From positions 2,387 through 66,386 of the forward strand of contig JAVBJT010000038.1 of the NCBI GenBank assembly GCA_031546845.1: DNA of 64,000 nucleotides. Reading direction: 5' to 3'. The position numbers and the translations under genes were made by a program. Position 1 is the stretch's first letter, and the number at the start of each line of letters is the position of its first letter. This stretch comes from Azoarcus sp. Its GTDB lineage: Bacteria > Pseudomonadota > Gammaproteobacteria > Burkholderiales > Rhodocyclaceae. Positions 41,853 to 63,766 of this stretch are shown one piece after another. The notes beneath the pieces were generated by a model, which saw only the letters and a list, made by a program, of their open reading frames with translations, was not told the origin of the DNA and did not search any database.

Positions 41853-42128
41853 ATGGAAAAGGAAAATGAAAAGGATGACTACAATTTGCTGCACAGCTTT
41901 TCCATGGTGGAAGCCAGCTTGCATTACACCATCAGTGTTTTTGGCAATGAGCTCGCCAGAAGGGAGGGATACAAAGTCCACAGCGGACTCGGCGCGGTTC
42001 ATTACTACCTGTGCGTCAAATTCGGCTGGTTGCCGGAAAGAGTCCGCTCAATGAGTTGGCGCGATCTTCATTTTTTGCTGATAGAAGACATGCATGGCTG
42101 GACTATCCCCAAAGAAGCTCAGCGTTAG
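41853..42128 (+). CDS. Hypothetical protein (91 aa), first ORF of reduced-GC island
   Basis: ORF with plausible RBS; no family recognised; GC drops at ~41.8 kb. Confidence 0.35.
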   Translation: MEKENEKDDYNLLHSFSMVEASLHYTISVFGNELARREGYKVHSGLGAVHYYLCVKFGWLPERVRSMSWRDLHFLLIEDMHGWTIPKEAQR

Positions 42129-42203
42129 CGAAGCCTCCCCCGGAATTTCGTCTGCCAAGGGCGCCCTAAAAGGGGCGTCATTTTTGGAAGGCAGAAAACG
42201 GAG

Positions 42204-42428
42204 ATGCCGAAGCCTACACGTTCGAATTCAAAGAACTGACGGACAAAGCGTAGGTGCAGGGAACTCGGATTGGGCGATCAGACGTTGCGCAACGGGGTCA
42301 AGGCAGCAGCGGACGGCAAGCTAAACGATGCCGGCGGCAGAATCGTGGTGACTGAGGGAAGAGAACTTTCCAGGCTTTGCGCCGAAAATCCCCGGCTCAA
42401 GCGCAGAGCTCCCGCAGCTACGCATTAG
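42204..42428 (+). pseudogene. Decayed IS3-family transposase orfA remnant (frameshifted, internally deleted, no orfB)
   Basis: MPKPTRSNSKN* then in other frames FEFKELTDKA / ELGLGDQTLRNGVKAAADGKLNDAGGRIVVTEGRELSRLCAENPRLKR resembling IS3 OrfA (MPKPTRR.FS.EFK...HTH...leucine zipper ENxRLK). Confidence 0.5.
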
Positions 42429-42713
42429 TCATAATCCGACACCCCAAAGCCATCATTTTTGTATTCAAATCCAAGCAGTTGAGCCCGGAACGTATCGAAG
42501 GTAGCGGCAAGACCAAGAAAGCGTAGCCGCGTGGCGATGTAGACCGACTGCCCCTGCTAGCAAAAGGTGCGTTGAGCACTTACTATTCACTATGCTGTAA
42601 TTATAAGCGCCGCAATGGCCGTGCATAGATGAAGTCCCCAGCGGGGATAACTACAGCGCACAACGATAAATAGAGTTTTCCGACGAAAAACACAACAATT
42701 CAGGAGGAAAGCA

Positions 42714-43850
42714 ATGCACGTATTCAACGAACGCATCCGCAAGCACGCCAAGCATGTCAAAAGCGTCGGTGCGTATTGCAATACAGAAGAAACCACAAAG
42801 CAGGCGCTGATCCTGCCTATGCTCGACATTCTTGGTTTTTCACCGTTCGACCCGACAAAGGTAAAAGCCGAATATGGCGCTGACCTTCCTGGCGTAAAAA
42901 GCAGCGAGCGCATTGATTACGCGCTTTTTTGCCACGGTATGCCGGTAATGCTTATAGCGGTTAAGGCATACAGCGAAACGCTGGAAAATCACTGCCCACA
43001 ACTGGCGCGGTACTTCAATGCAACACCGAAAATGACCATTGCCGCCATCACGAACGGCAGAGAATGGCGCTTTTTTACTGGTCTCAACAACAAGAACGTG
43101 ATGGATGCAACGCCGTTTTTGTCCGTCAGCTTCGAGAACATGGATGGCACGCTGGTTAATCGTCTATCCCGCTTCCGCCATGACGAGTTCCAGCCGGAAG
43201 TTTTACGCATGCTGGCCGAGGAAACGGTGTACCTCAACGCCTTCACCGACGTAATCAGCCAAGCCTTGTGCAAACCGGACGCCGAGTTTGTCCGTTACGT
43301 GGCTGGACGAGCAGGCATCCAGCGTCAGATCAATGCTCGCTTCATCGAGTCGGCCACGCCTATCGTCAAGCAGGCGGTAGAACGGTCGGTCAGTAAAATG
43401 GCGGTATCCGGCCTGACGACAAAACCCATAAATTCAAAGCCGGTTGAAACGACAGATGAACAGCAAGACATTATCGATCCGGACAACCCGAAGATAGTTA
43501 CAACCTATGCCGAGCGGCGTATTTTCGAAGTTGCAAAAAACATTGTTGGCGATGCGGATATCATTGCACGAGACACGGAAAACTATTTCTCTGTCCTGTA
43601 CCAGAACAAGGCCAATCGTTGGTTGCTACGCTACTACGGCAACCGACGGCAACCGACGATTACCGTTTGTGTGCCGATGACGGAAGAAAGAAAGCACGAA
43701 ATTATCCGCGCCGGTTTGCAAATAGGGGCAGGAGATTCCATCCTTCTTCCGCAGCCTGAATATCTGCTGTGTATTCCTGGAATCATCTTTGACGCGCTAG
43801 AACACTGTAAGGATGACGCCAATTTCAAGCGTGCTCAGACCGTAGAATAG
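42714..43850 (+). CDS. Solo protein with type-I restriction enzyme HsdR N-terminal-like (PD-(D/E)xK) domain, unknown C-terminal region
   Basis: NTEETTKQALILPMLDILGF...RIDYALF...PVMLIAVKAY matches HsdR_N pattern (E.TK..I.P.L..LG...D..L....P....E.K) with Glu of ExK replaced by Ala; strong RBS aggagg. Confidence 0.5.
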   Translation: MHVFNERIRKHAKHVKSVGAYCNTEETTKQALILPMLDILGFSPFDPTKVKAEYGADLPGVKSSERIDYALFCHGMPVMLIAVKAYSETLENHCPQLARYFNATPKMTIAAITNGREWRFFTGLNNKNVMDATPFLSVSFENMDGTLVNRLSRFRHDEFQPEVLRMLAEETVYLNAFTDVISQALCKPDAEFVRYVAGRAGIQRQINARFIESATPIVKQAVERSVSKMAVSGLTTKPINSKPVETTDEQQDIIDPDNPKIVTTYAERRIFEVAKNIVGDADIIARDTENYFSVLYQNKANRWLLRYYGNRRQPTITVCVPMTEERKHEIIRAGLQIGAGDSILLPQPEYLLCIPGIIFDALEHCKDDANFKRAQTVE

Positions 43851-43883
43851 CCACCCGGCTGAACACGCTCATTTATGGCGTGG

Positions 43884-43988
43884 TAATCGGAGAAGTACGG
43901 CTGGTGCCAGAAAACGGCACTCTGACCGCAGAAATGCAAAGCGTCGGGCTAGCCGGCGCTTTGCAAATAACGTTGGTTGCGGGGACAG
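43884..43988. repeat. ~105-bp att-like repeat copy A (recombinase 3' tail + degenerate tRNA-fMet 3' end); copy B at 47886-47990
   Basis: ~88% identity to 47886-47990 including ggagaagtacggctgg...ccgcagaaatgcaaagcg...ttggttgcgggg; diverges where copy B enters tRNA T-arm. Confidence 0.6.
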
Positions 43989-44085
43989 AATTCGACCGTT
44001 GTTTGCCTCAAGTAATCAGGTTCGAAGGCTTACGGTAATCCCGTGTGTTTTTTATCTTTGAGCTGCCTACACATGGGCACGCTTC

Positions 44086-44115
44086 TTGACCTTTAGCCGC
44101 AGCCGGGCCTATGCT
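44086..44115 (+). promoter_or_regulatory. Candidate sigma70 promoter (TTGACC-N18-TATGCT)
   Basis: Near-consensus -35/-10 with 18-nt spacer directly upstream of structured region ending in terminator. Confidence 0.4.
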
Positions 44116-44121
44116 CCCCGT

Positions 44122-44207
44122 GTCGCCGATACAGAGGCGACCGGGGGTGAGAGCCCGGACTGCGGCGGCGATGAGCCGCCACACGCGCAAGCTGTGCGGC
44201 TTTTTTG
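44122..44207 (+). ncRNA. Candidate ~85-nt small RNA (three stem-loops, ends in Rho-independent terminator)
   Basis: Hairpins gtcgccgatacagaggcgac, cgggggtgagagcccg and terminator gccgccacacgcgcaagctgtgcggc+tttttt at 44175-44206. Confidence 0.35.
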
Positions 44208-44640
44208 CGCCTTGGTGTGCCTTCTATGGGCGACCGGGCGGAGGGCGCCGCAAGGTGCGCCGGATGCCGTAGCCGGTCTCTCAACCTCCGTTTCGGTCGC
44301 CCACCCGTTTGAGAGCGGGACGGGCGGTTCAGAACCACTTACGGATCTGCACATCATGGCAAACATCGCCCAAGACGCACCCGCGCCCACCTGCACCACC
44401 CAAACCGTCTCCTTCTTCTCCATTTCTCCCGACATCGGCCCGTTGTTCGCCGTGTGCCCAAGCATACCGCTATTGGAAATTCAAGCGGCATCCAACCTGT
44501 TTGCCGCAGCAAGGGACACCGCCTACCGCTACGCGGCGGACCAACGCGGCGATGAGGCTTACGCCCCCGCCTGCCTCATCGAGATGGCGAAAGCGGCTAT
44601 TGAACTTCGATCTTGGCGGACCTCCCAGAAGGAGCAAAAG

Positions 44641-44932
44641 CATGAACGAGTTCATTCGGATCGAAATCCACGATATGGCGGACAGCAGTGTTCAGATCGT
44701 CAATGCCCGCAATCTTTGGGCATTTGTGGAAAGTAAGCGCCAGCTTTCTGGCTGGATAAAAGGCAGAATCATATTGTCAGTCGGCGAGGAAATGTTTGGC
44801 GTCATTTTTTGCAACCTTATCTTGCACCAAGGAACCTCTGGGCCGTTTTATTGGGTTTTAATTACTTATTCTCTTAAGAAATTCGACAGCAATTTGACAG
44901 ATTCTTCTAAATACCTGAGAAAATCAATGTAA
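44641..44932 (+). pseudogene. Possible truncated phage antirepressor AntA-like N-terminal fragment
   Basis: MNEFIRIEIHDMADSSVQIVNARNLWAFVESKRQLSGWIKGRI resembles AntA/AntB N-terminal motif (VNAR.LH.FL..K..FS.WIK.RI); similarity stops where GC collapses; good RBS aaggag. Confidence 0.3.
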
Positions 44933-45657
44933 ACATCATGAAAATAAAGAATATTTACATTTTCATAAGACTTACGCAAACGCAGTTCCGTCTCAAACGA
45001 AATAAAGCAGGAATTAAATACATCTTCTTTGCATATCCATTCATCAAAAAATTTAACTAAATCACGCTCATATATGCCAATAAATAACTGAACCTTTAAT
45101 CGCTTAAAAACACAAGATTGAAGTAATTTTTTATTTTCCAAAAAAAAACCCTTAACAACCTCACTTATTTCTTCATTGTCATTAGAAGATAAAATATCGC
45201 GCACTTTTTCGCAGGAGGATGAAACTCCTTTCATTTCAACCATTAATTCATGAATGATCGCAAAAATCTCTTCAGCCTTCTGAAACCGCTCCTTTCGAGA
45301 TTCAGCAGCCTTTTTATATTGATGCTCTTTTTCAATCATTTCAAACCTTGCTTTTATATCCTTTTCTGAGCGTTTGTGTAGAAACAAATTAGCAATCAAC
45401 ACGGAAAGAAGAGCAAAAACAGCTGCAATGAATTGCACCACTGGAGCGGGAAAATCATTGCCAGTTAGAAATTCGAATATTTTTTCTCTTTCAATATAGA
45501 TTATAAAAATGATTATGGGAACACCAACGTACCATAAAAGCTGACCAAGACAGCGGAGGGAGAGGGCGTAATAATGCTTGTACCCATCAATGAATTTCTT
45601 GCATTGCATGCACCACGGAGGTGTTTCTTTTGGAGGATGAAGGCCTGACTCATTCAT
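44866..45657 (-). CDS. AT-rich (~33% GC) hypothetical membrane protein (CxxC, 2 TM, coiled-coil), foreign origin
   Basis: Start inferred at MNESGLHPPKETPPWCMQCKKF; TM helices VGVPIIIFIIYI and VVQFIAAVFALLSVLIANLFL; Lys/Glu-rich C-terminal half. Confidence 0.45.
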   Translation of the reverse strand: MNESGLHPPKETPPWCMQCKKFIDGYKHYYALSLRCLGQLLWYVGVPIIIFIIYIEREKIFEFLTGNDFPAPVVQFIAAVFALLSVLIANLFLHKRSEKDIKARFEMIEKEHQYKKAAESRKERFQKAEEIFAIIHELMVEMKGVSSSCEKVRDILSSNDNEEISEVVKGFFLENKKLLQSCVFKRLKVQLFIGIYERDLVKFFDEWICKEDVFNSCFISFETELRLRKSYENVNILYFHDVYIDFLRYLEESVKLLSNFLRE

Positions 45658-45985
45658 TTTATTTCCTGTGGACAATAAATAGCATTTACATGTGTGCACT
45701 GGCCCACACATGGCTCAATGCAACTAACGTGAATTATGCAAAAGAAATCGACAACCCGGCAAGGCATTTTCTGATATGTCATTTATATAACGCAGCCTTA
45801 CAGACAGTATAAAAGCTTCCATTTTGCTAGCCGGCCACCTGACCTGCCCGCTTTCTTCGGCCCAATAATTTCTAGGAAGATGGCTCCATATGCGGGAGGA
45901 GCCCATGAGAAAGAGTCGATTCACCGAAGGGAATCGCCCCGTGTTTGAACTGCCCCCCAGAAGTTGGATAGTTACGATCTGCTGA

Positions 45986-46930
45986 TCATGCGGCATTTCT
46001 CAGCCGGAATTCAATCGGGCTGAGCCCTTGCAGTCCGAGCTTGATGCGCTCATGGTTGTAGTAGCGAATGTAATCGCGCACACCAACTTCGAGCTGTGCA
46101 AGGTTGTCGAACTTGGCAAGGTGGAAGAATTCTGCCTTGAGCGTGCCGAAGAAACTCTCAATCGCCGCATTGTCAAAGCAGTTACCTTTTCGGCTCATGC
46201 TCTGTGTGACACCGTAACGCGCAAGCATCGCCCGGTACGGCTGCATCTTGTATTGCCAGCCTTGATCGGAGTGCAGGATTAGCCCGGTAGCAAACCGGGG
46301 AAGTGCCGCCTTAATCGTGCATGAGACCAACTCGAACACGGGGCGTCTGGCCATACGGTGCGCGATGATTTCGCCGTTGTACAGGTCCATGCAAGCTGAC
46401 AAGTAGAGCTTCTACCCCTTGACGTTGAATTCGGTGATATCGGTCACCCACTTCTGGGCGGAAATCGTAGCGCAGAAATCGCGTTGTAGAACATTGGGAA
46501 CGCACACATCGCTGAGACCGTGAGGACGCCGGTAGCGCCTCTTTGCTCGAATCAGAGAGCGTAGCCCCATCTGTTGCATGAGACGCTGTACGCGCTTGTG
46601 ATTAACGGGCTGCGCCAGTGCATTGCACAGCGCTGCTGCAATTCGCCTGTAGCCGTAACGCCCTTTGTGCTCGGTATAAATGGCGCAGATCTGGGCCTTT
46701 ATGTCGCCGTGCTTGTCAGTACGTTGCATAGCCCGGCGCTGATAGTAAAAGGTGCTGCGGGCAAGGTCCGCTACCTGCAACAGGACCTCCAATTTGTGGT
46801 ACCGCCTCAATCCGAGGATGATGCGCGCTTTATCGGCGCAACTGATCTTCTCGCCCGGATCAAGGCATGCAATTTTTTTAAGTAGGCCACCTCCGCGCGC
46901 AACCGCTCGTTCTCTTCGCGCAAGTTGCAC
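45986..46930 (-). pseudogene. IS3-family transposase OrfB (DDE integrase) interrupted by nonsense codon
   Basis: ...FNVKG*KLYLSACMDLYNGEIIAHRM...HSDQGWQY...NCFDNAAIESFFGTLK (DDE motif); TAG replaces expected Glu codon. Confidence 0.75.
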
Positions 46931-48139: not shown

Positions 48140-49507
48140 TCAATCCCCCACAAGCTGCAATTCGAAACCGCCCGACACGGTACCCTCGCTGCGGGTAGCC
48201 GGTTCGCTATGGCGGGAAAATGCCTTGGCGAGATCGGTCAGCCGGCGGGCAACGACCGTGGCAATCTGCTGACGAAACAGTTCAAGCACCTCTTCGCTGG
48301 CCAAGGCCAAAGCCGACGGGTTGATTTCCAGATATGTAAGCGGCGACAACGAGACAGCAGTCATCACATGGCAATGCTCCACGTGGTTCAACCATGCCTG
48401 TTCGCCAAAAACCTCGCCCGCGCCCAACTCCATGACCTTGCGGCCCTCGATCGACAATTCGACCTTGCCTTCGAGCACGATGCCAAATCGCTGGTCCGTG
48501 TTCTGCTCCTGCATCAACAACACTTTCTCGCCAACTTTCCGCCATGAGCAGATACGCAACGTCTCCCACAGCTCGACATCCTCGAAATCGACAAAAAACG
48601 CCAATCTACGCAGCACGGAAAAACGCCCGGACATGACTGACACCGATTGCTCGCTTTCGTCCAAAAGCTTGTAACGAACAGCGGCCAGCTCCTTGGCAAA
48701 ATCGGCGCCATTTTTGTAGCGCGAGTACAAATCTTTTTCCAGCGCTTTGCGAATCACGCTATCCAACTGCTCTGGCACGTCAGGATTGAGCTGCGAAACC
48801 AAAGGCGGGTCGACATTGATGATTTTGTATACCAGTTGCGCAGGGTTCGAGGCGCGAAAAGGCAAGCGACCTGTAAGCAAATGAAACAACACCACGCCAA
48901 GCGAATAGAGATCCGTTTTTTGATTGAGCGGATATCCCTTGATCTGCTCGGGGCTCATATAGGCAGGCGAACCGACCCCCATGATGAAAGTCGAATCCAC
49001 ATCGGTCTTTTTACTGATATTGAGCGCCAGACCGAAATCGGTGATCTTCACATTGTCCTGGTCATCCACCAGGATATTGGCCGGTTTGATATCGCGGTGA
49101 ACGATGCCTTGCCGATACGCATGATCGAGCGCCATGCAGCACTTGAAAACAATGCCGATGGCACGGTGAACCGGCAATAGGCGTTCAAAGGAGCAATAAC
49201 GTTCCAGCGTATCGGCGGGGAAATACTCCATCACCACATAGGCTTGATTCGGCTCCACCACCGCGTCGAAAATACGAATCACGCTGGGATGATTCAAGCG
49301 GCTGGCAACCGCCTGCTCCGCCTTTAAAAGCTTGAGCATGCGACGATTCCACTTGGCTTCGTCCTTGGCTTTGTCATCGAAGCGAACAAACTTTACCGCG
49401 ACCGGTTCGGGGCTATCCGGGTCTTCCGCCAGATAAACCGTCGCCGTGGCTCCGCGCCCCACCTCGCGGACAATTTTGTACTTACCGATTTTTTCAGGGA
49501 TGCTCAT
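48140..49507 (-). CDS. Hanks-type Ser/Thr protein kinase fused to C-terminal cyclic-nucleotide-binding-like domain
   Basis: Start inferred at MSIPEKIGKYKIVREVGRGATATVYLA (Gly-loop), VAVK, HRDIKPANIL, DFG, SPEQ; C-terminal Crp-like beta-roll (FGIVLEGKVELSIEGRKVMELGAGEVFGEQAWL). Confidence 0.75.
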   Translation of the reverse strand: MSIPEKIGKYKIVREVGRGATATVYLAEDPDSPEPVAVKFVRFDDKAKDEAKWNRRMLKLLKAEQAVASRLNHPSVIRIFDAVVEPNQAYVVMEYFPADTLERYCSFERLLPVHRAIGIVFKCCMALDHAYRQGIVHRDIKPANILVDDQDNVKITDFGLALNISKKTDVDSTFIMGVGSPAYMSPEQIKGYPLNQKTDLYSLGVVLFHLLTGRLPFRASNPAQLVYKIINVDPPLVSQLNPDVPEQLDSVIRKALEKDLYSRYKNGADFAKELAAVRYKLLDESEQSVSVMSGRFSVLRRLAFFVDFEDVELWETLRICSWRKVGEKVLLMQEQNTDQRFGIVLEGKVELSIEGRKVMELGAGEVFGEQAWLNHVEHCHVMTAVSLSPLTYLEINPSALALASEEVLELFRQQIATVVARRLTDLAKAFSRHSEPATRSEGTVSGGFELQLVGD

Positions 49508-49752
49508 GTAAACCTGTAACAAATACCGCGCTCTTATATCGCGCAAGGTGTTGCTGTGATTGTGTCATAAAGCGCCATGGTGGCGTCAGTTGAATACATC
49601 ACGGTAGCGTCATACCCGATAAATTGACCGATCGGTAATAATCGCCGCCTTACGCGGCTTCATACCCTTGAATACGAAAGGAAATAGCTGCATCCAAAGT
49701 ATGGTACGCGCTGCACGCTTTTCTAGCCTTTTCTAGCTCTCGGAGTACATCC

Positions 49753-52698: not shown

Positions 52699-52745
52699 AA
52701 TAAGCGGCCGGCATTGACCGGCACCTATTTCAGCGCACCATCGCA

Positions 52746-52791
52746 GGCGGACATAAAATGTCTTGACATTTTATGTCCGCCTACTTACATT
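52746..52791 (+). promoter_or_regulatory. Near-consensus sigma70 promoter (TTGACA-N17-TACATT) embedded in a perfect 17-bp-arm palindrome (candidate operator)
   Basis: ggcggacataaaatgtc-tt-gacattttatgtccgcc (52746-52781); -35 at 52763-52768 is the palindrome centre, -10 at 52786-52791; 40 bp upstream of DUF2170 gene. Confidence 0.5.
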
Positions 52792-52832: not shown

Positions 52833-53249
52833 ATGAAATCGCTGCAAGAAAAAATTGCGGGCCTGGATCTGTCGATAAGCATGCGGCTGAGCGGTGCAAC
52901 CGTGGATCTGCAGCCCATTCCGGGGTCGGTGCCGGTCATTCAGGTCGCCATTGGCGGGCGCGAAGAGTTGCCGATTTTCATCACCGCATCCGAGGCTCAA
53001 ATCCTCTGCATCTGCTACTTGTGGACCGATTCGGAAATCGCGCCGGACAAACGTATCGAGCTGCTGGAACTCCTGCTTGACCTCAACCTGTCGATTCCCT
53101 TGTCCTCGTTCGGCAGGGTGGATGGCCGCTACGTGCTGTTCGGCGCGCTCTCCCACGACGCCCGTATGGAAGACATTGCGCAGGATATCGTCGCACTGAG
53201 CGACAACGCGCTCGATGCGCTGGAAGCGCTTTCCGGATATCTCGCTTAA
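52833..53249 (+). CDS. DUF2170 family protein (YjfI-like)
   Basis: 138-aa ORF resembling E. coli YjfI in size/pattern, directly upstream of a PspA-family gene as in yjfI-yjfJ. Confidence 0.55.
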   Translation: MKSLQEKIAGLDLSISMRLSGATVDLQPIPGSVPVIQVAIGGREELPIFITASEAQILCICYLWTDSEIAPDKRIELLELLLDLNLSIPLSSFGRVDGRYVLFGALSHDARMEDIAQDIVALSDNALDALEALSGYLA

Positions 53250-53262
53250 TTAGGAGCCGAAC

Positions 53263-53970
53263 ATGAGTGTGATCGAAAAAATTCTGACTTTACTGCGCGG
53301 CAGTGCTCGCGAACTCGGCGACAGCCTGATCGACGCCAACGCCACGCGCATCTACGAGCAAGAAATCATCGACGCGCGTAATGCCATCCTGCAGGCCAAG
53401 AGCGAATTGACCGGCGTAATGGCCAAGGAAATGCAAAGCGCGCGCGAAATCGAACGCATCCGCGGTGAAATGCTGCGTTTCGAAGCGCTGGCCGTTGAAG
53501 CGCTGGACAAGGGTAAAGAGGCGCTCGCCGAAGAGGTCGCCGGCAAGGTTGCCGAAACGGAAGCCGCACTCGAAGAGCAAACACGCACCCACGCCAGTTA
53601 TGCACTGCAGGTAAGCAAACTGAAAGACTTGATCAAGGCGGCGGAAAACAAGGTGCGCGAACACGAGCGCGAAGTGGCGATGGCACGCACCACGGAAAAC
53701 GTTTACCGCGCTACCCGCTCAATTTCCGATAGCATCGGCGCGAGTGGCTCCAGGTTGGTCAGCGCGCGCGAATCGTTGGAACGCATCAAACGGCGCCATG
53801 AAGACCTCGCCGACCGCATGAGCGCGGCTGAAACGCTAGACAAGGAAATCGGCGTCAAAGCGCTGGAAACGAAGCTTGCCGAAGCAGGCATCGGCGCCGA
53901 CAGCGACCGCAAGCGGCGGGCGATGGAACGCATTCGCGCACGCCAGGCAGCGCCGCGGGACGAGGCATGA
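53263..53970 (+). CDS. PspA/IM30 (ESCRT-III-like) family protein, YjfJ-like
   Basis: 235-aa all-helical coiled-coil ORF with PspA-family N-terminus (MSVIEKILTLLRGSARELGDSLIDANATRIYEQEIIDARNAI). Confidence 0.75.
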   Translation: MSVIEKILTLLRGSARELGDSLIDANATRIYEQEIIDARNAILQAKSELTGVMAKEMQSAREIERIRGEMLRFEALAVEALDKGKEALAEEVAGKVAETEAALEEQTRTHASYALQVSKLKDLIKAAENKVREHEREVAMARTTENVYRATRSISDSIGASGSRLVSARESLERIKRRHEDLADRMSAAETLDKEIGVKALETKLAEAGIGADSDRKRRAMERIRARQAAPRDEA

Positions 53971-54287
53971 CAACACGCAAGCCAGCGCGTTGGCAAGCGT
54001 CGGACGAAGCGATTCGCGCGGTGCAAGTCGCTTTCGATGTGGAAGGCGCGGTGCTTGAAGCAGTCCGCCGCGCCGCCTTCGAAAACAACCTATCCACCTC
54101 GGATCAGATCCGTAGCGTACTTGGCCTTGCCGTGACGCGACGACCAAAGCGCCCGCGCCTCACCGTTTCATTGACGCCGGCCGACTATGAAACGCTGGCC
54201 GCGCGTTACGCTCTGGCGGAAACGGACCGATTAGCCATCAAGGAACACGTCACCGACGAATTGATCCGCTTTGCACGCACAACCTGA
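53967..54287 (+). CDS. Small protein with two ribbon-helix-helix-like half-domains
   Basis: ATGA overlap with pspA-like stop; segments AIRAVQVAFDVEGAVLEAVRRAA...SDQIRSVLGL and RPRLTVSLTPADYETLAARYALAETDRLAIKEHV fit beta-alpha-alpha RHH pattern. Confidence 0.4.
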   Translation: MTTRKPARWQASDEAIRAVQVAFDVEGAVLEAVRRAAFENNLSTSDQIRSVLGLAVTRRPKRPRLTVSLTPADYETLAARYALAETDRLAIKEHVTDELIRFARTT

Positions 54288-54318: not shown

Positions 54319-54948
54319 ATGGGCGATCTTGCCGCCGCCGCACTCAGCTATCCGACGGCAATTTACACCGCGCTGCTTGGCGCGGTGGTTTTCTACTGGT
54401 TGCTGGCACTGATCGGCCTGGTCGATTTCGACCATGGCGCGTCCGACTTCGATCTCGATCTGGACGGCGATGTTGGCGATATCGGCACCATCGCCGCCTA
54501 CCTCGTTGCTTTCGGACTCGGTGGCGTACCCTTTTCGATCGTGGTCAGCCTGCTCGTGCTGATCGGATGGACGATATGCTGCCTGTTCGCCATGTGGCTA
54601 TTGCCGCTTGTACCCACTTCCGTGCTGCGGCTGGTGGCGGGCACGGCCGGATTGCTCGGCGCCTTCGCGCTCGCCTTACCACTGACCGCCGCGGCGGTAC
54701 GCCCGCTGCGCAAGCTTTTCGTGACCCACGGCGCAATCTCCAACGCCGCGCTGGTTGGCCAAACTTGCCGCATTCTTACCCGCACCGTGGATGAAAAATT
54801 CGGCCGAGCCGAAGTTTCCGGCCACGGCGCCAGCTATAACATCCGCGTTTATGCCGATACGCCCAATTCCCTTACTCGCGGCTCGACCGCGATCATCGCT
54901 GACTACGATCCAAGCGGTGCGCGCTACCACGTGCGCGCCGAGGAATAA
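54319..54948 (+). CDS. NfeD-like/YqiJ-like inner-membrane protein (TM region + C-terminal OB-fold)
   Basis: 209 aa (same as E. coli YqiJ); 4 TM helices then soluble beta-rich C-terminus (GQTCRILTRTVDEKFGRAEVSGHGASYNIRVYAD...) immediately upstream of flotillin gene. Confidence 0.6.
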   Translation: MGDLAAAALSYPTAIYTALLGAVVFYWLLALIGLVDFDHGASDFDLDLDGDVGDIGTIAAYLVAFGLGGVPFSIVVSLLVLIGWTICCLFAMWLLPLVPTSVLRLVAGTAGLLGAFALALPLTAAAVRPLRKLFVTHGAISNAALVGQTCRILTRTVDEKFGRAEVSGHGASYNIRVYADTPNSLTRGSTAIIADYDPSGARYHVRAEE

Positions 54949-57147: not shown

Positions 57148-57711
57148 ATGCGCAAACTTCACTGTACCTGCAGCGCCCATGCGGAACTCGACGGCCATCT
57201 CCTCGCACCCGGCCTTACCGCACAACGCTGCCCGACCTGCGGTAACGTCCTGCTCGCGCTCGACGATTACCGCCGCTGGCGGGAGCGCCAACCCGCCAGT
57301 GGCACAGTGACAACCCCATCGGCGAACGGCGCGAAGCCCGAATCCGGAGCAGCCGCGCAAGCGCGCCATTGCCCCGCCTGCCAGCGCTTGATGAGCCGGC
57401 ACCGTAGCGGCACCGCGCCGGACTTCCACCTCGACCGGTGCAGTCCGTGCCAACTGGTATGGCTGGACGACGGTGAATGGCAGCAACTCGAAGAAGCCGG
57501 CCTTGCCACCCAGCTCGACATCGTGCTGACCGATGCCTGGCAACAGCGCATTCAAGCAGCCGAAATGCAGGCGGGCCGTGACGCCGCGCTGCGCGCCCGG
57601 CTCGGCGATGAAACCTTTGCCGAAGTCCGTCGCCTGCAATCCTGGCTGGATGACCACCCGCAGCGCGCCGCAATCCTTGCCGAACTCAACGTCAAGCGCC
57701 GGGCGGGCTGA
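57148..57711 (+). CDS. Double zinc-ribbon protein (zf-TFIIB-like ribbons)
   Basis: Two CxxC...CxxC units (CPTCGNVLL...; CPACQRLMSRH...CSPCQLVWLDDGEWQQLEE) matching C-P-x-C-G / C-x-x-C-x-G-x-W-L-D pattern. Confidence 0.55.
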   Translation: MRKLHCTCSAHAELDGHLLAPGLTAQRCPTCGNVLLALDDYRRWRERQPASGTVTTPSANGAKPESGAAAQARHCPACQRLMSRHRSGTAPDFHLDRCSPCQLVWLDDGEWQQLEEAGLATQLDIVLTDAWQQRIQAAEMQAGRDAALRARLGDETFAEVRRLQSWLDDHPQRAAILAELNVKRRAG

Positions 57712-57770: not shown

Positions 57771-60700
57771 ATGTCCGATCCGACCTTTCTCGCAGCCGCC
57801 AATCCCACCGAAACCTTGACGGCCGACAGCGGCAGCTACGAGCTGCTGAAAAAGCGGCTTACCGACCGCGGCGCCACGCTGCAACGGAAAACGCGCAGCC
57901 TCAACGACGCGCGGCTGAAGGAGTTCGGCCGTGCCGAACAATCGCTGGTACTGCGCACCCGCGCCCGCACCGAAAACAACTGCATCGCCCGCGATCTGGT
58001 GTATATCGGCGATCTGCTGCTGTTCGGCTACAACGTCTTCATCGGCCTGCGCAAGGAAATCACCGTCGGCGACGTATTTGCCCTCTACCGCTTCAAGGCC
58101 CAGGGCGACGCCGAGGAACTCGAAGCCGTGCCCACCGCGGGCACCTTCCTTGACGATCCGCGCTTCAATGCCGACTTCCGCGAACTGTACGCCTACTACA
58201 AGCAAGCGAATCTGATTCAGTTGCGCGTACATCAGCAAAAACTGCTGGCCGCCTTCCAGATCGGCGAGCAGGCGCACGACATGCGCGTGTTTCGCTGGGA
58301 GTTGGAAGCCGGCGGCAACATCCGCTACATCGACAATCGCGGCGAGCGCGACATTGCGCTGCCGCCGACACACGATTTCGAATGGACCGTCACCACACGC
58401 GATAACCACGTCGGCGGGAAATATCCCCACATCAATATTCTCGACACCATTTTCGTCGAAACCACGGGTGGCGACCTCACGGTCAAGATTGAGAACAACA
58501 CCGAAAGCGGACTCGGCATTTACGCCGAACCGGTGGAAGATCGCAACCAATCGCTCGCCGACGCGGAAATCGCCTACGCCCGCCTCGGCGCGCTGATCCT
58601 GCTGAAAATCCGTCCCTACCGCGAGAAGGACGAGCGCTTCCTTGTTTTCAACGCGCGCACCCGCCAGGTTGTGCGCATCGACGCCATCGGGCGCTCCTGC
58701 GTACAGTTACCGGAAGACCACGGCATCATCTTTCCCGGCGGTTATTACCTGCAATCCGGCGAACACAAGCGTTTCGACCTTCCCGTCGAAACAGCAGTCG
58801 GCGCGCTGCGCTTCAAGCGCATGCTGCGCTCGCCCAACGGCGAGGACGTGCTTTATGTTTTCTACCAACCGGGCACGGGTCTTTATGCGCTGTTCTCCTA
58901 CAACCTGATCGAAAAAACGCTGAGCGCGCCCATCCTCTGCAACGGCTACGCCCGCTTCGACGACGGCCGATTCCTCGTCTTCCAGGCGGAAGGCCCGGAA
59001 CCGACGCGCAACCACCCGATGCAGTTGTGGCAAACGCCTTTCGCCAGCGACGACTATGCCGCCGACACGAATGGCGCCCAGGGGTTTTTCGCCCGCATCG
59101 GCAACCCCGAACTGGTGCGCGGCATCTCTGAGCTAACCGCCATCGCCCGCGCAGTCGACGAACAAACGCCCACGCGCGCCGCATACGAAGCGCTGATCCA
59201 GCACTGTGAGCGAGCGCTCGACGCCTATTTCTGGCTCGGTGCAGCCGAAACCGACAGCCTGGAAACCGACGTGCGCGCCATTGCCGACGGTGCTCACGCC
59301 ACGCTGAACGAGTTCGACAAAGTCGAAAGCATCCGCCGCGACACCGCGCGCACACTGGCCGATGCCGAAGCGCGCCAGCGCGCTCTTCTCACCGACATCG
59401 CCAGCATGTTGTGGCAGCAGCCAGACGATTTCGTCCGTGCGCTCGGCCTGCTGCGCGAGCAGCGCGGCCGCCTGAAAACACTGGAAGAACTGCGCTACGC
59501 CGATCTGCCCGGCATTGCCACGATGGACCAAGCCCTGTCCACCGAACAGCAACGCATCGGCGAACGCGCCGTGCGTTTCCTGGCCGAAGAGCAAGCCTTC
59601 GACGGCCAACGCCGCGAGCTCGCGCGCATTGCCTCCGCCTTGCCCGCCACCGCAACCAGCACCGACATCGCCACCCTGCTGGCCGAACTCGACCGTATCG
59701 CGGCCGGGCTCGACCTGCTCACCGAGCAGCTCGGCAGCTTGCCCGGTGGGGACGCGGTGGTGCGCACCCGCATCCTCGATAACATTTCGGCCATTTACGC
59801 CGACGTCAACCGATTGCGCGCCGAAGCCCGCAACCGGCGCAAATCACTCGGCGCCACGGAGGCCACGGCCGAATTCGGCGCGCAATTCAAACTCTTCGGC
59901 CAGGCGGTGGAAAACGCGCTGGAACTGGCCGACACACCGGAAAAATGCGACGACGCGCTGACCCGATTGCTCGCCCAGCTTGAAGAACTCGAAGGCCGCT
60001 TCGCCGAACACGAAAACTTCGCCGACGACATCGCAGCCAAGCGCGAATCGGTGTACGAAGCCCTCTCGGCTCGCCGTCAAAGCCTGCTCGAAGCCCGCCA
60101 GCGCCGCGCCCAGGCGCTTACCGACGCAGCAGGCCGTATCCTCGACGGCATTCCACGCCGCATCGCCACATTCGGCGAAATCGAACAAGTACACACCTAT
60201 TTCGCCGCCGATGCGCTCGTCGCCAAACTGCGCAAACAAATCGACGACCTACGCGCGCTCGGCGCCGCGGTCGCCGCCGACGATCTCGACACGCGTCTCA
60301 AAACCGCGCGCGATCAAGCGCTGCGCACCGTGCGCGACCGCCATGAACTGGTCGCCGACGACGGGCAAACGCTGCGCCTGGGGCGCCATACCTTCACCAT
60401 CAACCGGCAATCGCTCGATCTCACGCTGGTGCCCAAGGACAGCTCACTCGCCTTCCATCTCAGCGGCACCGACTACTTCTCACCGGTCGAAGACACGCGC
60501 CTCGATACACTCAAACCCTACTGGGAACAGGCGCTGGTATCGGAAAGCGCGGAACTGTATCGCGCAGAGTATCTTGCCGGCGCACTGCTCGACGCGGTGC
60601 AATCCGGCTCCGGCCCCCTCTCCTGGAACGATCTGCTCGCCCTGTGCGCAGGTAATGGCAACGATCCAGCGCACGGCCGCCGCCTGCTCGATGCCATCCG

Positions 60701-63002
60701 CGAATTCAGCGCCACGCGCTACCAGGAGGGATACCAAAAAGGCGTCCACGATCACGACGCTGTGCATCTCCTCAGCGCGCTGACGACGATGCAGGCCGCA
60801 GCCGGCCTGCTCGTCGACGCCCCCGAAGCGCGCGCCCTCGCCCTCCTCTACTGGCAATATAGCGACGACGCCGAACATGAGGCATTGCAACGCCGAGCCC
60901 GCTCCGCACTGCAGTTGTTTGAACAGTTTGCCGCGCCCGATTGTCTGCAACGCCTCGAACGCGACTGTGCCGAACAACTCACAGCCTTCGCGCCGGGCTT
61001 CGGCTTCACCGCCGCCGACGACACATTGGTCCCCCAGGCCGCGCATTACCTGGTACGCCAACTGGCCTCACCACGCGGCGCCGAAGCCTGGGTCGTCTCC
61101 GGCGCCGGCGCCGATCTTGCTCAAGCCTTGCTGCGCCAACTTGAGCACCGTGGGCAACTCGCGGAATGGCAGCGCGATCTCGACGCCGCGCCATCGGCCG
61201 AACGCTGGCGGCTGGCGCTCGACTGGGTCACCGCTTTCACTACCGCCGATCCGGCCAACCGGTCCGCCCTCCCCTGGATTGCCGACGCCGCCACCCAACT
61301 TGCCGTGCCACTAGAGCGCGCACGGGTCAATGCCAATCTCGACCGCACAATCGACGGCTTGCTCGGTGAACACCCGCGTATCGCCAATGGATCGGCAACA
61401 CTCAACCTGAACGACTTCCGCCGCCGCTATCTGCATCACCACAACGTCGTCGTCCCCGCCTTCGAACGCCTGCAAGCGCTACGCCTGGATATCGTCGCAA
61501 CCGAAAAGCATCGCCTGCGCCTCGGCCAATTCCAAGCCAAACCGCTGTCGTCCTTCGTCCGTAACCGCCTGCTCGACGAAGTCTATCTGCCCATCATCGG
61601 CGACAACCTCGCCAAGCAGATCGGCGCTGCCGGCGACGCCAACCGTACCGACCGCATGGGTCTGCTGCTACTCATCTCGCCACCGGGGTACGGCAAGACT
61701 ACATTGATGGAATACGTCGCCGATCGCCTCGGCCTCATTTTCGTGCGCATCAACTGCCCCACGCTCGGCCACGACACCACCACGCTCGACCCCGCCAGCG
61801 CCCATCACAGCGCCGCGCGCCAGGAATTGGAAAAACTCAATCTCGGCCTGACGATGGGCAACAACGTCATGCTGTATCTGGACGACATCCAGCACACCAG
61901 CCCCGAATTCCTGCAAAAATTCATCGCGCTGGCTGACGGCACCCGTCGCATCGAAGCAGTTCTCGACGGCGAATCCAGAACCTGCGATCTACGCGGCAAA
62001 CGCTTTGCCATCGTCATGGCTGGCAATCCGTATACCGAATCCGGCGACGTATTCAAAATCCCCGACATGCTCGCCAACCGCGCCGATATCTACAACCTTG
62101 GCGACGTACTCTCGGGGCGCGAAAAACTGTTTGCCCTGTCCTACATCGAGAACAGCCTTACCGCTAATCCGCTGCTACAACCATTGGCCGCGCGCGACCC
62201 GAAAGACGTCCATCTGCTGGTACGCATGGCCGAAGGCGAAGAGGTGGCCGCGAGCGACTTCAGCCACGGCTACAGCAGCGCCGAACTGACCGAACTCAGC
62301 ACGCTGATTCAGCGCCTGTTCCGCGCCCGCGACCTGCTGCTGAAGGTCAACCTCGCCTACATCGACTCCGCCGCGCAACATGACGCCTATCGCACGGAAC
62401 CGCCATTCAAGCTACAAGGCAGCTACCGCAACATGACCAAACTCGCCGCGCGCATCACCCCGCTGATGCACGACGACGAACTCGACGCCCTGCTGCGCGA
62501 CCACTATCGCGGCGAAGCACAAACCCTCACGAATGGCGCCGAGGAAAACTTGCTCAAGCTCGCCGAACTGCTCGGTAGCCAGAATGCCGAGGAAGCGGCG
62601 CGCTGGACTGAGATCCGTACCGACTTCGTGCGCAACCGTAAGCTCGGTGGCAGCGACACCGACGGCGCCACACGCATCTCCGCCACGTTGCTCGACGTCG
62701 CTCAAGCGATCGATAAACTGAAAACAGATACTTCCCTTGATCACAGCCTGCGCGCGGGCCTCGCCGAACTCACCGCGACACTGGCCAAACTACAGCCGAC
62801 AATCGAAATCGGCGCGCCCGACACCAGCGGCTTTGCCGATACATTGCGTGAAATGCGTGAGAATTACGACAAAGTACTGCTCCCACTGGTCACCGCAACC
62901 TATCGCAAAATGCGCCTGGATCACTCGCTGTGGGAAGAAATGAAGCGGCTCTCCACGCTCACGGCGCGTCTGGATGAACACTTGTTTTCAGAGGAAAAAT
63001 AA
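57771..63002 (+). CDS. Giant 1743-aa multidomain protein with C-terminal AAA+ ATPase module (Walker A SPPGYGKTT, Walker B VMLYLDD, sensor-1 AIVMAGNPY)
   Basis: Single uninterrupted ORF; N-terminal ~650 aa beta-rich, central ~700 aa helical/coiled-coil, AAA+ core at residues ~1285-1450, ~290-aa helical tail. Confidence 0.6.
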   Translation: MSDPTFLAAANPTETLTADSGSYELLKKRLTDRGATLQRKTRSLNDARLKEFGRAEQSLVLRTRARTENNCIARDLVYIGDLLLFGYNVFIGLRKEITVGDVFALYRFKAQGDAEELEAVPTAGTFLDDPRFNADFRELYAYYKQANLIQLRVHQQKLLAAFQIGEQAHDMRVFRWELEAGGNIRYIDNRGERDIALPPTHDFEWTVTTRDNHVGGKYPHINILDTIFVETTGGDLTVKIENNTESGLGIYAEPVEDRNQSLADAEIAYARLGALILLKIRPYREKDERFLVFNARTRQVVRIDAIGRSCVQLPEDHGIIFPGGYYLQSGEHKRFDLPVETAVGALRFKRMLRSPNGEDVLYVFYQPGTGLYALFSYNLIEKTLSAPILCNGYARFDDGRFLVFQAEGPEPTRNHPMQLWQTPFASDDYAADTNGAQGFFARIGNPELVRGISELTAIARAVDEQTPTRAAYEALIQHCERALDAYFWLGAAETDSLETDVRAIADGAHATLNEFDKVESIRRDTARTLADAEARQRALLTDIASMLWQQPDDFVRALGLLREQRGRLKTLEELRYADLPGIATMDQALSTEQQRIGERAVRFLAEEQAFDGQRRELARIASALPATATSTDIATLLAELDRIAAGLDLLTEQLGSLPGGDAVVRTRILDNISAIYADVNRLRAEARNRRKSLGATEATAEFGAQFKLFGQAVENALELADTPEKCDDALTRLLAQLEELEGRFAEHENFADDIAAKRESVYEALSARRQSLLEARQRRAQALTDAAGRILDGIPRRIATFGEIEQVHTYFAADALVAKLRKQIDDLRALGAAVAADDLDTRLKTARDQALRTVRDRHELVADDGQTLRLGRHTFTINRQSLDLTLVPKDSSLAFHLSGTDYFSPVEDTRLDTLKPYWEQALVSESAELYRAEYLAGALLDAVQSGSGPLSWNDLLALCAGNGNDPAHGRRLLDAIREFSATRYQEGYQKGVHDHDAVHLLSALTTMQAAAGLLVDAPEARALALLYWQYSDDAEHEALQRRARSALQLFEQFAAPDCLQRLERDCAEQLTAFAPGFGFTAADDTLVPQAAHYLVRQLASPRGAEAWVVSGAGADLAQALLRQLEHRGQLAEWQRDLDAAPSAERWRLALDWVTAFTTADPANRSALPWIADAATQLAVPLERARVNANLDRTIDGLLGEHPRIANGSATLNLNDFRRRYLHHHNVVVPAFERLQALRLDIVATEKHRLRLGQFQAKPLSSFVRNRLLDEVYLPIIGDNLAKQIGAAGDANRTDRMGLLLLISPPGYGKTTLMEYVADRLGLIFVRINCPTLGHDTTTLDPASAHHSAARQELEKLNLGLTMGNNVMLYLDDIQHTSPEFLQKFIALADGTRRIEAVLDGESRTCDLRGKRFAIVMAGNPYTESGDVFKIPDMLANRADIYNLGDVLSGREKLFALSYIENSLTANPLLQPLAARDPKDVHLLVRMAEGEEVAASDFSHGYSSAELTELSTLIQRLFRARDLLLKVNLAYIDSAAQHDAYRTEPPFKLQGSYRNMTKLAARITPLMHDDELDALLRDHYRGEAQTLTNGAEENLLKLAELLGSQNAEEAARWTEIRTDFVRNRKLGGSDTDGATRISATLLDVAQAIDKLKTDTSLDHSLRAGLAELTATLAKLQPTIEIGAPDTSGFADTLREMRENYDKVLLPLVTATYRKMRLDHSLWEEMKRLSTLTARLDEHLFSEEK

Positions 63003-63040: not shown

Positions 63041-63766
63041 TCAGAAACGCAGGTCGAGTTTCAGTTCAACATCCGGGCTGCGCTCGCCGTTTTCAAGATT
63101 CATGTCCCACCCCATGCGATAGTGCAGTGTGGCGCCATCGCGAATGAAGTAGCGGCCGCTCAGTTGGGGCGTCATCTGGTCGATGCTGACCTGGGGACGC
63201 GAGCCATCTCGGCGGAGTGCGCCTTGCCCATTCAATCCCAGTGAAACCGAGTTGTTCAGCGCATAGGATGTGGTGAGCGTGTAGTTTGCGCCGAGCCCGG
63301 GACCATCTGTATCGGCGAGCTTTCCGAGCGACATGTCCGCATCGAGGGCGAGCCCGCCCTGTTGCATTCTGAAGGTCGGCTTCAACGCGAGCCCCCAGGC
63401 CGATGCGTCCCGCTGTCGGCTAGCATGCACGCCCAGATCGAACTTACCCGGCAGTATGCCGTCGAGCCCGTCGACACGCAGTTTCTGGTCGACGGTCAGC
63501 CGGCTGAACTGCGGCGCGCTGCCTTCCTGCGAGGTTGTGGCGAGGTCGAAGCGCGTCCGGCCGATATCGCCAGGCGGCAGTTCAAGATGCATCCCCAGTT
63601 CGTCCGTGCCGCCAGACTCTCCGGAACTACCCGCGCGCAGGCTGAGCCGCGGATCATCGTCATACGTTGAAAGCAGGCGCGGAGACAACTGATCGGCCGC
63701 GAACACAGGTGCGACAAACGCAAAACCAATCAGCAATGGAATGAAAATATGGAAAATCGGCCACAT
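63041..63766 (-). CDS. Hypothetical outer-membrane beta-barrel protein (signal peptide, C-terminal Phe)
   Basis: 241-aa ORF; signal peptide MWPIFHIFIPLLIGFAFVAPVFAA; alternating amphipathic strands; terminal ...LKLDLRF. Confidence 0.5.
   Translation of the reverse strand: MWPIFHIFIPLLIGFAFVAPVFAADQLSPRLLSTYDDDPRLSLRAGSSGESGGTDELGMHLELPPGDIGRTRFDLATTSQEGSAPQFSRLTVDQKLRVDGLDGILPGKFDLGVHASRQRDASAWGLALKPTFRMQQGGLALDADMSLGKLADTDGPGLGANYTLTTSYALNNSVSLGLNGQGALRRDGSRPQVSIDQMTPQLSGRYFIRDGATLHYRMGWDMNLENGERSPDVELKLDLRF

Follow-up and report, generated by a model that had tools for sequence, protein, structure and literature searches.

A BacE-type giant AAA+ ATPase at the end of a flotillin- and PspA-encoding operon in Azoarcus sp., a candidate remodeller of membrane scaffolds

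Described clusters and the ATPase family

The closest described counterpart of the system reported here is the 'biofilm-associated cluster' of Pseudomonas aeruginosa, bacABCDEF (PA14_16140-16200), which reverse transcription polymerase chain reaction defines as one operon (PMC10948618) and which has been linked to biofilm and virulence through bacA and bacB mutants (PMC2587700, PMC10948618). BacA is a DUF2170 protein of solved structure, and in a bacA mutant BacB to BacF are up 6- to 13-fold, with PA14_16190 (BacE) up 8.9-fold (PMC10948618); osmotic shock induces PA3731/BacB, a PspA-like protein whose mutant has a biofilm defect and shows attenuation in mouse lung (PMC2587700). Cystic fibrosis isolates of three studies carry recurrent mutations in PA3728, which is entered as an 'ATPase' (PMC8190622). 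The operon class to which such clusters belong was described by Ravi et al. 2024 with a 'beta-propeller + coiled-coil + AAA+ ATPase', a PLD gene being added in some Proteobacteria and shortened flotillin/YqiJ(/ATPase) versions being widespread (PMC11237479). Here we analyse a stretch of 64,000 nucleotides from Azoarcus sp. (contig JAVBJT010000038.1; hereafter the window), in which seven same-strand genes end with an open reading frame (ORF) of 1743 codons for an AAA+ ATPase, at 57771..63002 (+). The protein is an ordinary member of a catalogued, widespread and biochemically unstudied family of giant ATPases, and its most likely role, to which we give a probability of about 55% on the strength of gene context and fold, is that of an ATP-driven remodeller of the flotillin/YqiJ scaffold and/or of PspA polymers.

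Sequence comparison and gene order indicate that the ATPase corresponds to P. aeruginosa BacE. It aligns with the 1746-residue P. aeruginosa protein P0262 over 1756 alignment columns at 49% identity with 3% gaps, collinear from end to end, and the other core proteins of the window share 30% (DUF2170), 34% (PspA), 32% (YqiJ-like) and 56% (flotillin-like) identity with their P. aeruginosa counterparts. On the P. aeruginosa contig the order is DUF2170, PspA, a 213-residue protein, a 688-residue protein, the 1746-residue DUF3686/DUF7902/AAA_5 protein, PLDc_2, YaeQ, RecJ and an M4 peptidase, and because of this gene order we take the ATPase to be the fifth gene, BacE/PA3728, and the PLD protein to be BacF. 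The two loci thus share a full-length collinear ATPase with the same domain matches in the same place after the DUF2170, PspA, YqiJ-like and flotillin-like genes. The window operon differs in that it adds a small ORF, orf106, and a zinc-ribbon gene, has no PLD-like bacF, and is preceded by a sigma70-like promoter with a palindrome, whereas a sigma54 site has been proposed for bacA. Compared with the class of Ravi et al. 2024, domain order and gene neighbourhood are identical, and architecture and context suggest family identity with the Dokdonia protein of that study.

The ORF starts with ATG, a few bases 3' of a Shine-Dalgarno-like GGAAG, and is translated without internal stop; it is the largest of the window, the runner-up having 947 codons, so that an earlier reading made from the letters alone (the sequence-only reading) was right to describe one uninterrupted 5.2-kb frame. 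That reading had allowed that sequencing errors might split it into several genes. The ORF is unsplit, and its origin as a sequencing-error fusion of several genes is rejected, homologues from at least 8 phyla being collinear end to end. The same reading had called the protein an orphan of no named family, with some 1280 N-terminal residues free of recognisable motifs. Both statements have to be abandoned: residues 37-487 match PF12458 (DUF3686; E=3e-198, 659.3 bits where the cut-off is 25, with positions 2-448 of the 448 in the profile covered), residues 608-692 match PF25472 (DUF7902; E=6e-24, 84.5 bits against a cut-off of 26), and the protein finds its place among the NCBI 'DNA repair ATPase' entries, in the class of Ravi et al. 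2024 and next to PA3728/BacE. Placement in a well-characterised family with a function unrelated to the neighbours would have refuted the sequence-only reading; this family is not well characterised, and its neighbours are conserved partners.

The family is large. At least 6050 relatives were scored in a search of 5.8 billion proteins and at least 7549 in a second search; the best 120 of the at least 6050 all extend over the full length, with identities of 65-100%, and the closest named relative among the matches listed is that of Denitromonas halophila (74% identity), from which the window is probably of Rhodocyclales-like betaproteobacterial origin. Profile searches add Acidobacteriota, Planctomycetota, Eremiobacterota and many Pseudomonas, with one P. 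aeruginosa cluster holding 3222 member sequences, and homologues occur on plasmid records of Deinococcus, Streptomyces, Vibrio, Proteus and Hymenobacter. An exhaustive HMMER pass with residues 1-500 returned 715 clusters at 50% identity, and since all complete members have 1550-2036 residues, the propeller domain described below is limited to a single architecture. The Azoarcus protein conforms to this architecture, with one C-terminal AAA+ module, intact Walker A, Walker B, sensor 1 and arginine, and a length within the range of about 1600-2000 residues. The NCBI label of the homologues is 'DNA repair ATPase', in line with the Pfam description of PF12458 as 'ATPase involved in DNA repair', and the JGI label of many is 'MoxR-like ATPase'.

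Conserved gene context and domain anatomy

The genomic neighbourhood of the family was surveyed by a scan of one genome per species, in which two peptide patterns, one of them MAGNPYTE, retrieved about 600 relatives; 80 loci were kept, and neighbours were counted by tblastn of the window neighbours. A flotillin-like gene stands directly upstream of the ATPase gene on the same strand at every locus scored, across phyla (73/73), and a YqiJ/DUF1449-like gene lies upstream on the same strand at 70 of 72. DUF2170 is found upstream at 36 and PspA at 33 of 70 loci. The YqiJ-like, flotillin-like and ATPase genes are therefore the conserved core, and DUF2170-PspA is a frequent head module. This context fits the earlier suggestion that a flotillin scaffold is the substrate or the recruiting site of the ATPase. 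The sequence-only reading had named both a flotillin and a zinc-ribbon neighbour, and both genes are present; the second, however, was counted at only 10 of 76 loci, all in Burkholderiales or close relatives, and for that reason is a lineage-specific insert outside the conserved core. Accessory genes elsewhere include orf106 beside PspA (14/70 loci) and a PLD (HKD)-family gene 3' of the ATPase (15/73 loci; for example L083 13260-13952). An unbiased clustering of flank ORFs was swamped by antisense ORFs of GC-rich genomes and added only small lineage-specific neighbours, and we rely on the tblastn counts.

The anatomy of the protein was read from two AlphaFold2 models, built on alignments of 131 and 103 homologues and both confident, whose mean predicted local distance difference test scores (pLDDT) are 91.3 (residues 1-855) and 88.0 (residues 856-1743). 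Motif invariance was judged on 74 homologues from Beta-, Gamma- and Zetaproteobacteria, Myxococcota, Actinomycetota and a metagenome-assembled genome of Clostridia. The predicted parts are as follows.

Residues 12-52: helix of 40 residues in the model
Residues 58-421, 57942..59033 (+): all-beta domain, predicted beta-propeller, core of DUF3686, about 27 strands
Residues 427-855, 59049..60335 (+): helical arm including DUF7902 (608-692), with long helices such as 497-545, 662-719 and 748-798
Residues 867-1178, 60369..61304 (+): small beta domain (867-905), then all-helical domain (931-1178), in the model
Residues 1213-1249: long helix in the model
Residues 1266-1600, 61566..62570 (+): AAA+ module, alpha/beta core 1298-1445 and helical lid to about 1600
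Residues 1303-1311, 61677..61703 (+): Walker A, SPPGYGKTT, invariant in the 74 homologues
Residues 1368-1375, 61872..61895 (+): Walker B, LYLDDIQH, with D1371, D1372, I1373, Q1374 and H1375 invariant
Residues 1393-1406, 61947..61988 (+): beta-hairpin between helix 3 and strand 4, pre-sensor-1 position, by DSSP of the model
Residues 1416-1423, 62016..62039 (+): sensor-1 region, MAGNPYTE, with N1419; invariant
Residues 1431-1439, 62061..62087 (+): candidate arginine finger, PDMLANRAD, with R1437; invariant
Residues 1548-1555, 62412..62435 (+): sensor-2-like motif in the lid, LQGSYRNM; invariant
Residues 1601-1743, 62571..62999 (+): variable C-terminal helices, the last of about 54 residues (1686-1739)

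The four motifs proposed by the sequence-only reading could all be placed, the Walker A string LLISPPGYGKTTLMEY at residues 1300-1315, the Walker B string NNVMLYLDDIQH at 1364-1375, FAIVMAGNPY at 1412-1421 and RADIYNL at 1437-1443, with their key residues invariant in the 74 homologues; the model likewise bears out a single AAA+ core close to the C-terminus, with a helical tail behind it. What had been called a central coiled coil is better described as some 430 residues of long helices (427-855), followed first by a small beta domain and then by another domain that is all-helical. R1437 is a candidate arginine finger by its position and by its likeness to what we take to be the MoxR motif 'LPxAxxDRF', and LQGSYRNM resembles what is presumably the 'GASPRA' motif of MoxR. 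The AAA+ module (0.63-0.81) and the propeller (0.6-0.7) are the best-conserved parts; among the internal regions conservation is lowest in residues 867-1178 (0.27-0.44), and it is poor in residues 1601-1743 (0.11-0.41). The intact nucleotide site of the ATPase is under strong purifying selection.

A Foldseek search of the N-terminal model against PDB returned propellers only (the DCAF1 WD-repeat domain, YncE, the PALB2 WD40 domain, the clathrin terminal domain with its linker, and IFT-A subunits), with E-values of 1e-5 to 1e-3 and identities of 8-12%; the N-terminal beta domain is, as modelled, a propeller of no particular known subfamily, for which about 27 strands would fit seven blades. The same kind of search with the C-terminal model found AAA+ proteins only, and the closest AAA+ folds are the MoxR, midasin or dynein modules, in keeping with the MoxR/McrB/dynein-like type guessed by the sequence-only reading. 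Pfam AAA, AAA_22 and AAA_5 models match residues 1296-1425 weakly, AAA_5 at 20.7 bits being below its gathering cut-off of 22 (E=4.4e-4), and no AAA_3 match was found in Pfam. Searches of PDB with the full protein and with a profile of the 74 sequences matched only the P-loop region (NVL, Rix7, RuvB); being confined to the P-loop, these matches are uninformative on clade or function. Neither a full PF00004 match nor a closest fold in the classical AAA clade (Vps4, p97, Rix7) was obtained. In its model the ATPase has a hairpin before sensor 1, which recalls MoxR-type AAA+ proteins (CbbQ of the CbbQO Rubisco activase, NorQ of NorQD) and the midasin and dynein modules, and residues 1329-1346 form a well-predicted loop with no clear helix-2 hairpin by DSSP. 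It departs from MoxR-type proteins in sharing only 12-17% identity with them and in carrying its adaptor, the propeller and helical arm of about 1250 residues, fused in cis. In most of the family the hairpin follows the consensus RRIEGVWxGxx(R/K)TYDMRGK; the replacement of its W and Y is a sub-clade change, in a loop that would face the ring pore in related AAA+ proteins.

The operon and the rest of the window

The seven genes of the window operon are spaced from a 4-nt overlap to a 79-nt gap, and together with the candidate promoter they are as follows.

52763-52791 (+): candidate sigma70-like promoter, TTGACA-17-TACATT, 5' of the bacA-like gene
52833..53249 (+): bacA-like, DUF2170/YjfI protein (CesT/Tir-like) of 138 residues; PF09938, E=6.9e-28
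53263..53970 (+): bacB-like, PspA/IM30 protein (ESCRT-III superfamily) of 235 residues; PF04012, E=1e-29
53967..54287 (+): orf106, small conserved protein, a lineage-restricted accessory, overlapping the PspA stop codon by 4 nt
54319..54948 (+): bacC-like, YqiJ/DUF1449-like multi-pass membrane protein of 209 residues
55028..57133 (+): bacD-like, flotillin-like SPFH protein of 701 residues; weak Pfam Flot match, N-terminal hydrophobic segment, long coiled coil
57148..57711 (+): double zinc-ribbon protein of 187 residues; PF13453 Zn_ribbon_TFIIB, E=3.3e-7
57771..63002 (+): bacE-like giant AAA+ ATPase of 1743 residues

The DUF2170 and PspA genes head the operon 13 nt apart; the DUF2170 protein matches PDB entry 8q8o, 'DUF2170 family protein' (E=2e-8), the PspA protein gives weak matches to Vipp1/PspA chains of PDB, and the 209-residue membrane protein aligns to a 'DUF1449 family protein' of Hymenobacter (E=9e-13). 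No PspB, PspC or NtrC-type activator was matched among the other operon products, which sets the operon apart from a canonical Psp system (pspFABC). orf106 has no Pfam match; judged by eye from its sequence it resembles two ribbon-helix-helix repeats. It accompanies the DUF2170-PspA pair even at loci where the pair is inverted (L079, L080), and may act as a regulator or together with PspA. No PLD match was found in the window, the ATPase gene being followed instead by a convergent ORF of 241 codons, 63041-63766 (-), with a weak outer-membrane-like Pfam match. The flanks are housekeeping genes, namely ubiG upstream, an amidohydrolase gene and an OmpA-family gene. Beyond the two lineage-specific accessory genes, there is nothing unexpected in the copy of the window.

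As for regulation, a perfect palindrome of 18+18 nt (AGGCGGACATAAAATGTC..GACATTTTATGTCCGCCT) at 52745-52782 (38 bp) overlaps the -35 box and looks like a candidate operator. Taken alone the sigma70-like consensus is not significant (2 found against 2.6 expected). In 34 other loci no such palindrome precedes the DUF2170 gene; as it is not conserved, it does not allow a regulator to be named. No sigma54 site was found upstream of the operon, and matches across the window are at chance expectation.

Annotated records of two plasmids agree with this gene order. On a plasmid of Hymenobacter (Bacteroidota) the order is Tir-type chaperone, PspA, DUF1449, hypothetical protein and 'DNA repair ATPase', the last being 42% identical to the window ATPase. 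On pQBR103, a megaplasmid of P. fluorescens SBW25 (L081, NC_009444.1 84446-101879), the order is YjfI, PspA, rhomboid, DUF2491, DUF350, DUF1190, glutathionylspermidine-synthase-like protein, hypothetical protein, SPFH and giant ATPase, with the flotillin homologue annotated 'SPFH domain-containing protein' and a MvaT/MvaU-type silencer gene after the ATPase; this plasmid merges the two PspA operon classes of Ravi et al. into one string.

Elsewhere in the window, positions 42000-46000 have a low GC content of 0.46-0.52 against about 0.61 in the remainder, and hold an ORF with a type I restriction HSDR_N match (42714-43850) and ORFs without Pfam match; this stretch may be a small foreign island. 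A Ser/Thr protein kinase of 468 residues fused to a cyclic-nucleotide-binding domain is encoded at 48140-49546 (-).

Possible roles of the ATPase

MoxR-type ATPases, midasin and dynein pass force to a bound partner by way of an adaptor or linker. It is on this background that we favour a role for the ATPase in the remodelling of membrane scaffolds. In the sequence of events that we propose, the flotillin-like and YqiJ-like proteins would form a scaffold at the inner membrane, on its cytoplasmic side, and PspA, an ESCRT-III-type polymer, would be recruited to stressed membrane. With its N-terminal beta-propeller and its long helical arm the ATPase would dock on these assemblies, and its single MoxR-like AAA+ module, presumably assembled as a ring, would use ATP to pull on them, so as to open, disassemble or recycle the scaffold and/or the PspA polymer. 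Such a machine might be seen as an analogue of Vps4 acting on ESCRT-III, or as a mechanical remodeller of the midasin or CbbQO type; that it forms a ring, which client it acts on and in which direction it would remodel that client are our inferences. The ATPase always comes with a flotillin-like gene, while flotillin/YqiJ pairs are widespread without an ATPase (Ravi et al. 2024, PMC11237479), and this asymmetry tells us that the ATPase needs the scaffold whereas the scaffold can do without the ATPase.

Parallels to parts of this scheme exist in other systems, each with its own limits. An AAA+ ATPase encoded beside a PspA of the ESCRT-III superfamily recalls Vps4/CdvC and ESCRT-III of archaea and eukaryotes and makes it plausible that polymers are recycled here too, but the likeness is a functional analogy only, the window ATPase being of a different AAA+ clade and PspA being absent from about half of the loci; according to a 2025 review, bacteria appear to have no Vps4-like ATPase (PMC7619361). 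In Bacillus subtilis the ydjFGHI operon combines PspA, a zinc-ribbon protein (YdjG) and a SPFH/flotillin-like protein (YdjI), much as the window operon does, and, as cited in PMC10936438, YdjI is required to localise PspA; unlike the window operon, ydjFGHI has no giant ATPase, and its membrane partner is the TPM-domain protein YdjH rather than a YqiJ-like protein. In HflK/C-FtsH, too, a scaffold of the SPFH family is paired functionally with an AAA+ machine, but FtsH is a membrane-anchored AAA protease of the classical clade, and domain searches found neither a protease domain nor a transmembrane anchor in the window ATPase.

Several observations weigh against a remodeller of this kind. PspA, missing from about half of the loci, cannot be an obligatory client. 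No conserved aromatic residue is found in the loop that follows strand 2 (GH[DE]VxSLDP), the place of the aromatic pore loop in classical threading AAA+ proteins, and in the window ATPase and its closest relatives L and C (AVL...TCDL) stand in for the conserved W and Y of the pre-sensor-1 hairpin. No conserved C-terminal tail that might serve as a handle for an AAA+ protein was found on the flotillin-like protein, whose last ~70 residues are its least conserved. The identity of BacE, PA3728 and the ATPase is drawn from gene order and from the listing of PA3728 as 'ATPase', and our literature search found no functional study of BacE or of any other member of the ATPase family. Full-text queries on DUF3686, on 'DNA repair ATPase' with flotillin and on SPFH with MoxR gave nothing relevant, and the ATPase is absent from the text of a survey of P. 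aeruginosa SPFH proteins (PMC13086221).

The same asymmetric coupling between ATPase and scaffold would also be expected if the flotillin/YqiJ scaffold were a docking site that concentrates the ATPase at microdomains, where other membrane-associated clients would be extracted, unfolded or assembled. MoxR-type CbbQ and NorQ are maturation or activation chaperones for other complexes, and HflKC-FtsH offers a precedent in the literature for a SPFH scaffold that works with an AAA+ machine. We nevertheless consider this rather unlikely, as no conserved client gene lies nearby beyond the flotillin-like, YqiJ-like, PspA and DUF2170 genes, and neither a protease domain nor a VWA adaptor domain is present in the ATPase or its neighbours (no VWA/MIDAS domain was found in the ATPase or in the seven neighbouring products scanned). 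The induction of PA3728-PA3732 in all phage-infected P. aeruginosa samples of one study (PMC12041424) raises another thought, namely that the operon is an anti-phage or abortive-infection module which senses phage membrane damage with the ATPase as motor or sensor. A patchy occurrence across phyla at about 45-50% identity and on large plasmids such as pQBR103, which suggests horizontal transfer, and the PLD-family gene after the ATPase at a minority of loci would agree with defence. Phage induction is, however, equally expected of a Psp-type envelope-stress response; PADLOC, run on eight proteins, returned only marginal matches (IetA, E=0.0068, over 29 P-loop residues; BrxC, E=0.001, on the PspA coiled coil); the window operon has no nuclease, protease or toxin effector and lacks the PLD gene; its flanks are housekeeping; and the family, which falls into only 715 clusters at 50% identity, shows a degree of conservation that is unusual beside typical fast-evolving defence genes. 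Taken together this makes a defence function improbable.

Even less credible, and very improbable in our view, is the role in DNA repair that the database name implies. The names themselves (the PF12458 description and the NCBI product name), a LexA-family regulator divergently encoded on one Hymenobacter plasmid and the position of recJ three genes downstream in P. aeruginosa are what speaks for it. On the other side, Pfam, NCBIfam and the fold search gave no DNA-binding, nuclease, helicase or SMC/ABC-type domain, the RuvB matches (E=0.002-0.005) are confined to the P-loop, the conserved neighbours are all membrane or membrane-associated proteins, and the literature search found no link of the family to DNA repair. 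The name 'DNA repair ATPase' thus appears unsupported and probably misleads users of the annotation.

Scaffold remodelling therefore remains the role that we prefer, and it is tempting to carry it one step further. BacE-type ATPases might be the energy source of membrane-scaffold dynamics in bacteria, a non-homologous, MoxR-derived counterpart of Vps4 that opens or recycles flotillin/YqiJ cages and PspA polymers by means of a propeller-tipped arm; we offer this broader proposal tentatively, as a possibility that is more doubtful than the role itself. If true, it would explain how flotillin/YqiJ and PspA assemblies are taken apart in the bacteria that carry the system. The family is the one AAA+ machine whose genes are tied to those of a flotillin-type scaffold, and in many cases to PspA, which makes it an obvious candidate for the motor that opens or recycles such assemblies. 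The good candidate for this missing motor of bacterial flotillin/PspA dynamics is the family, not the particular copy in the window.

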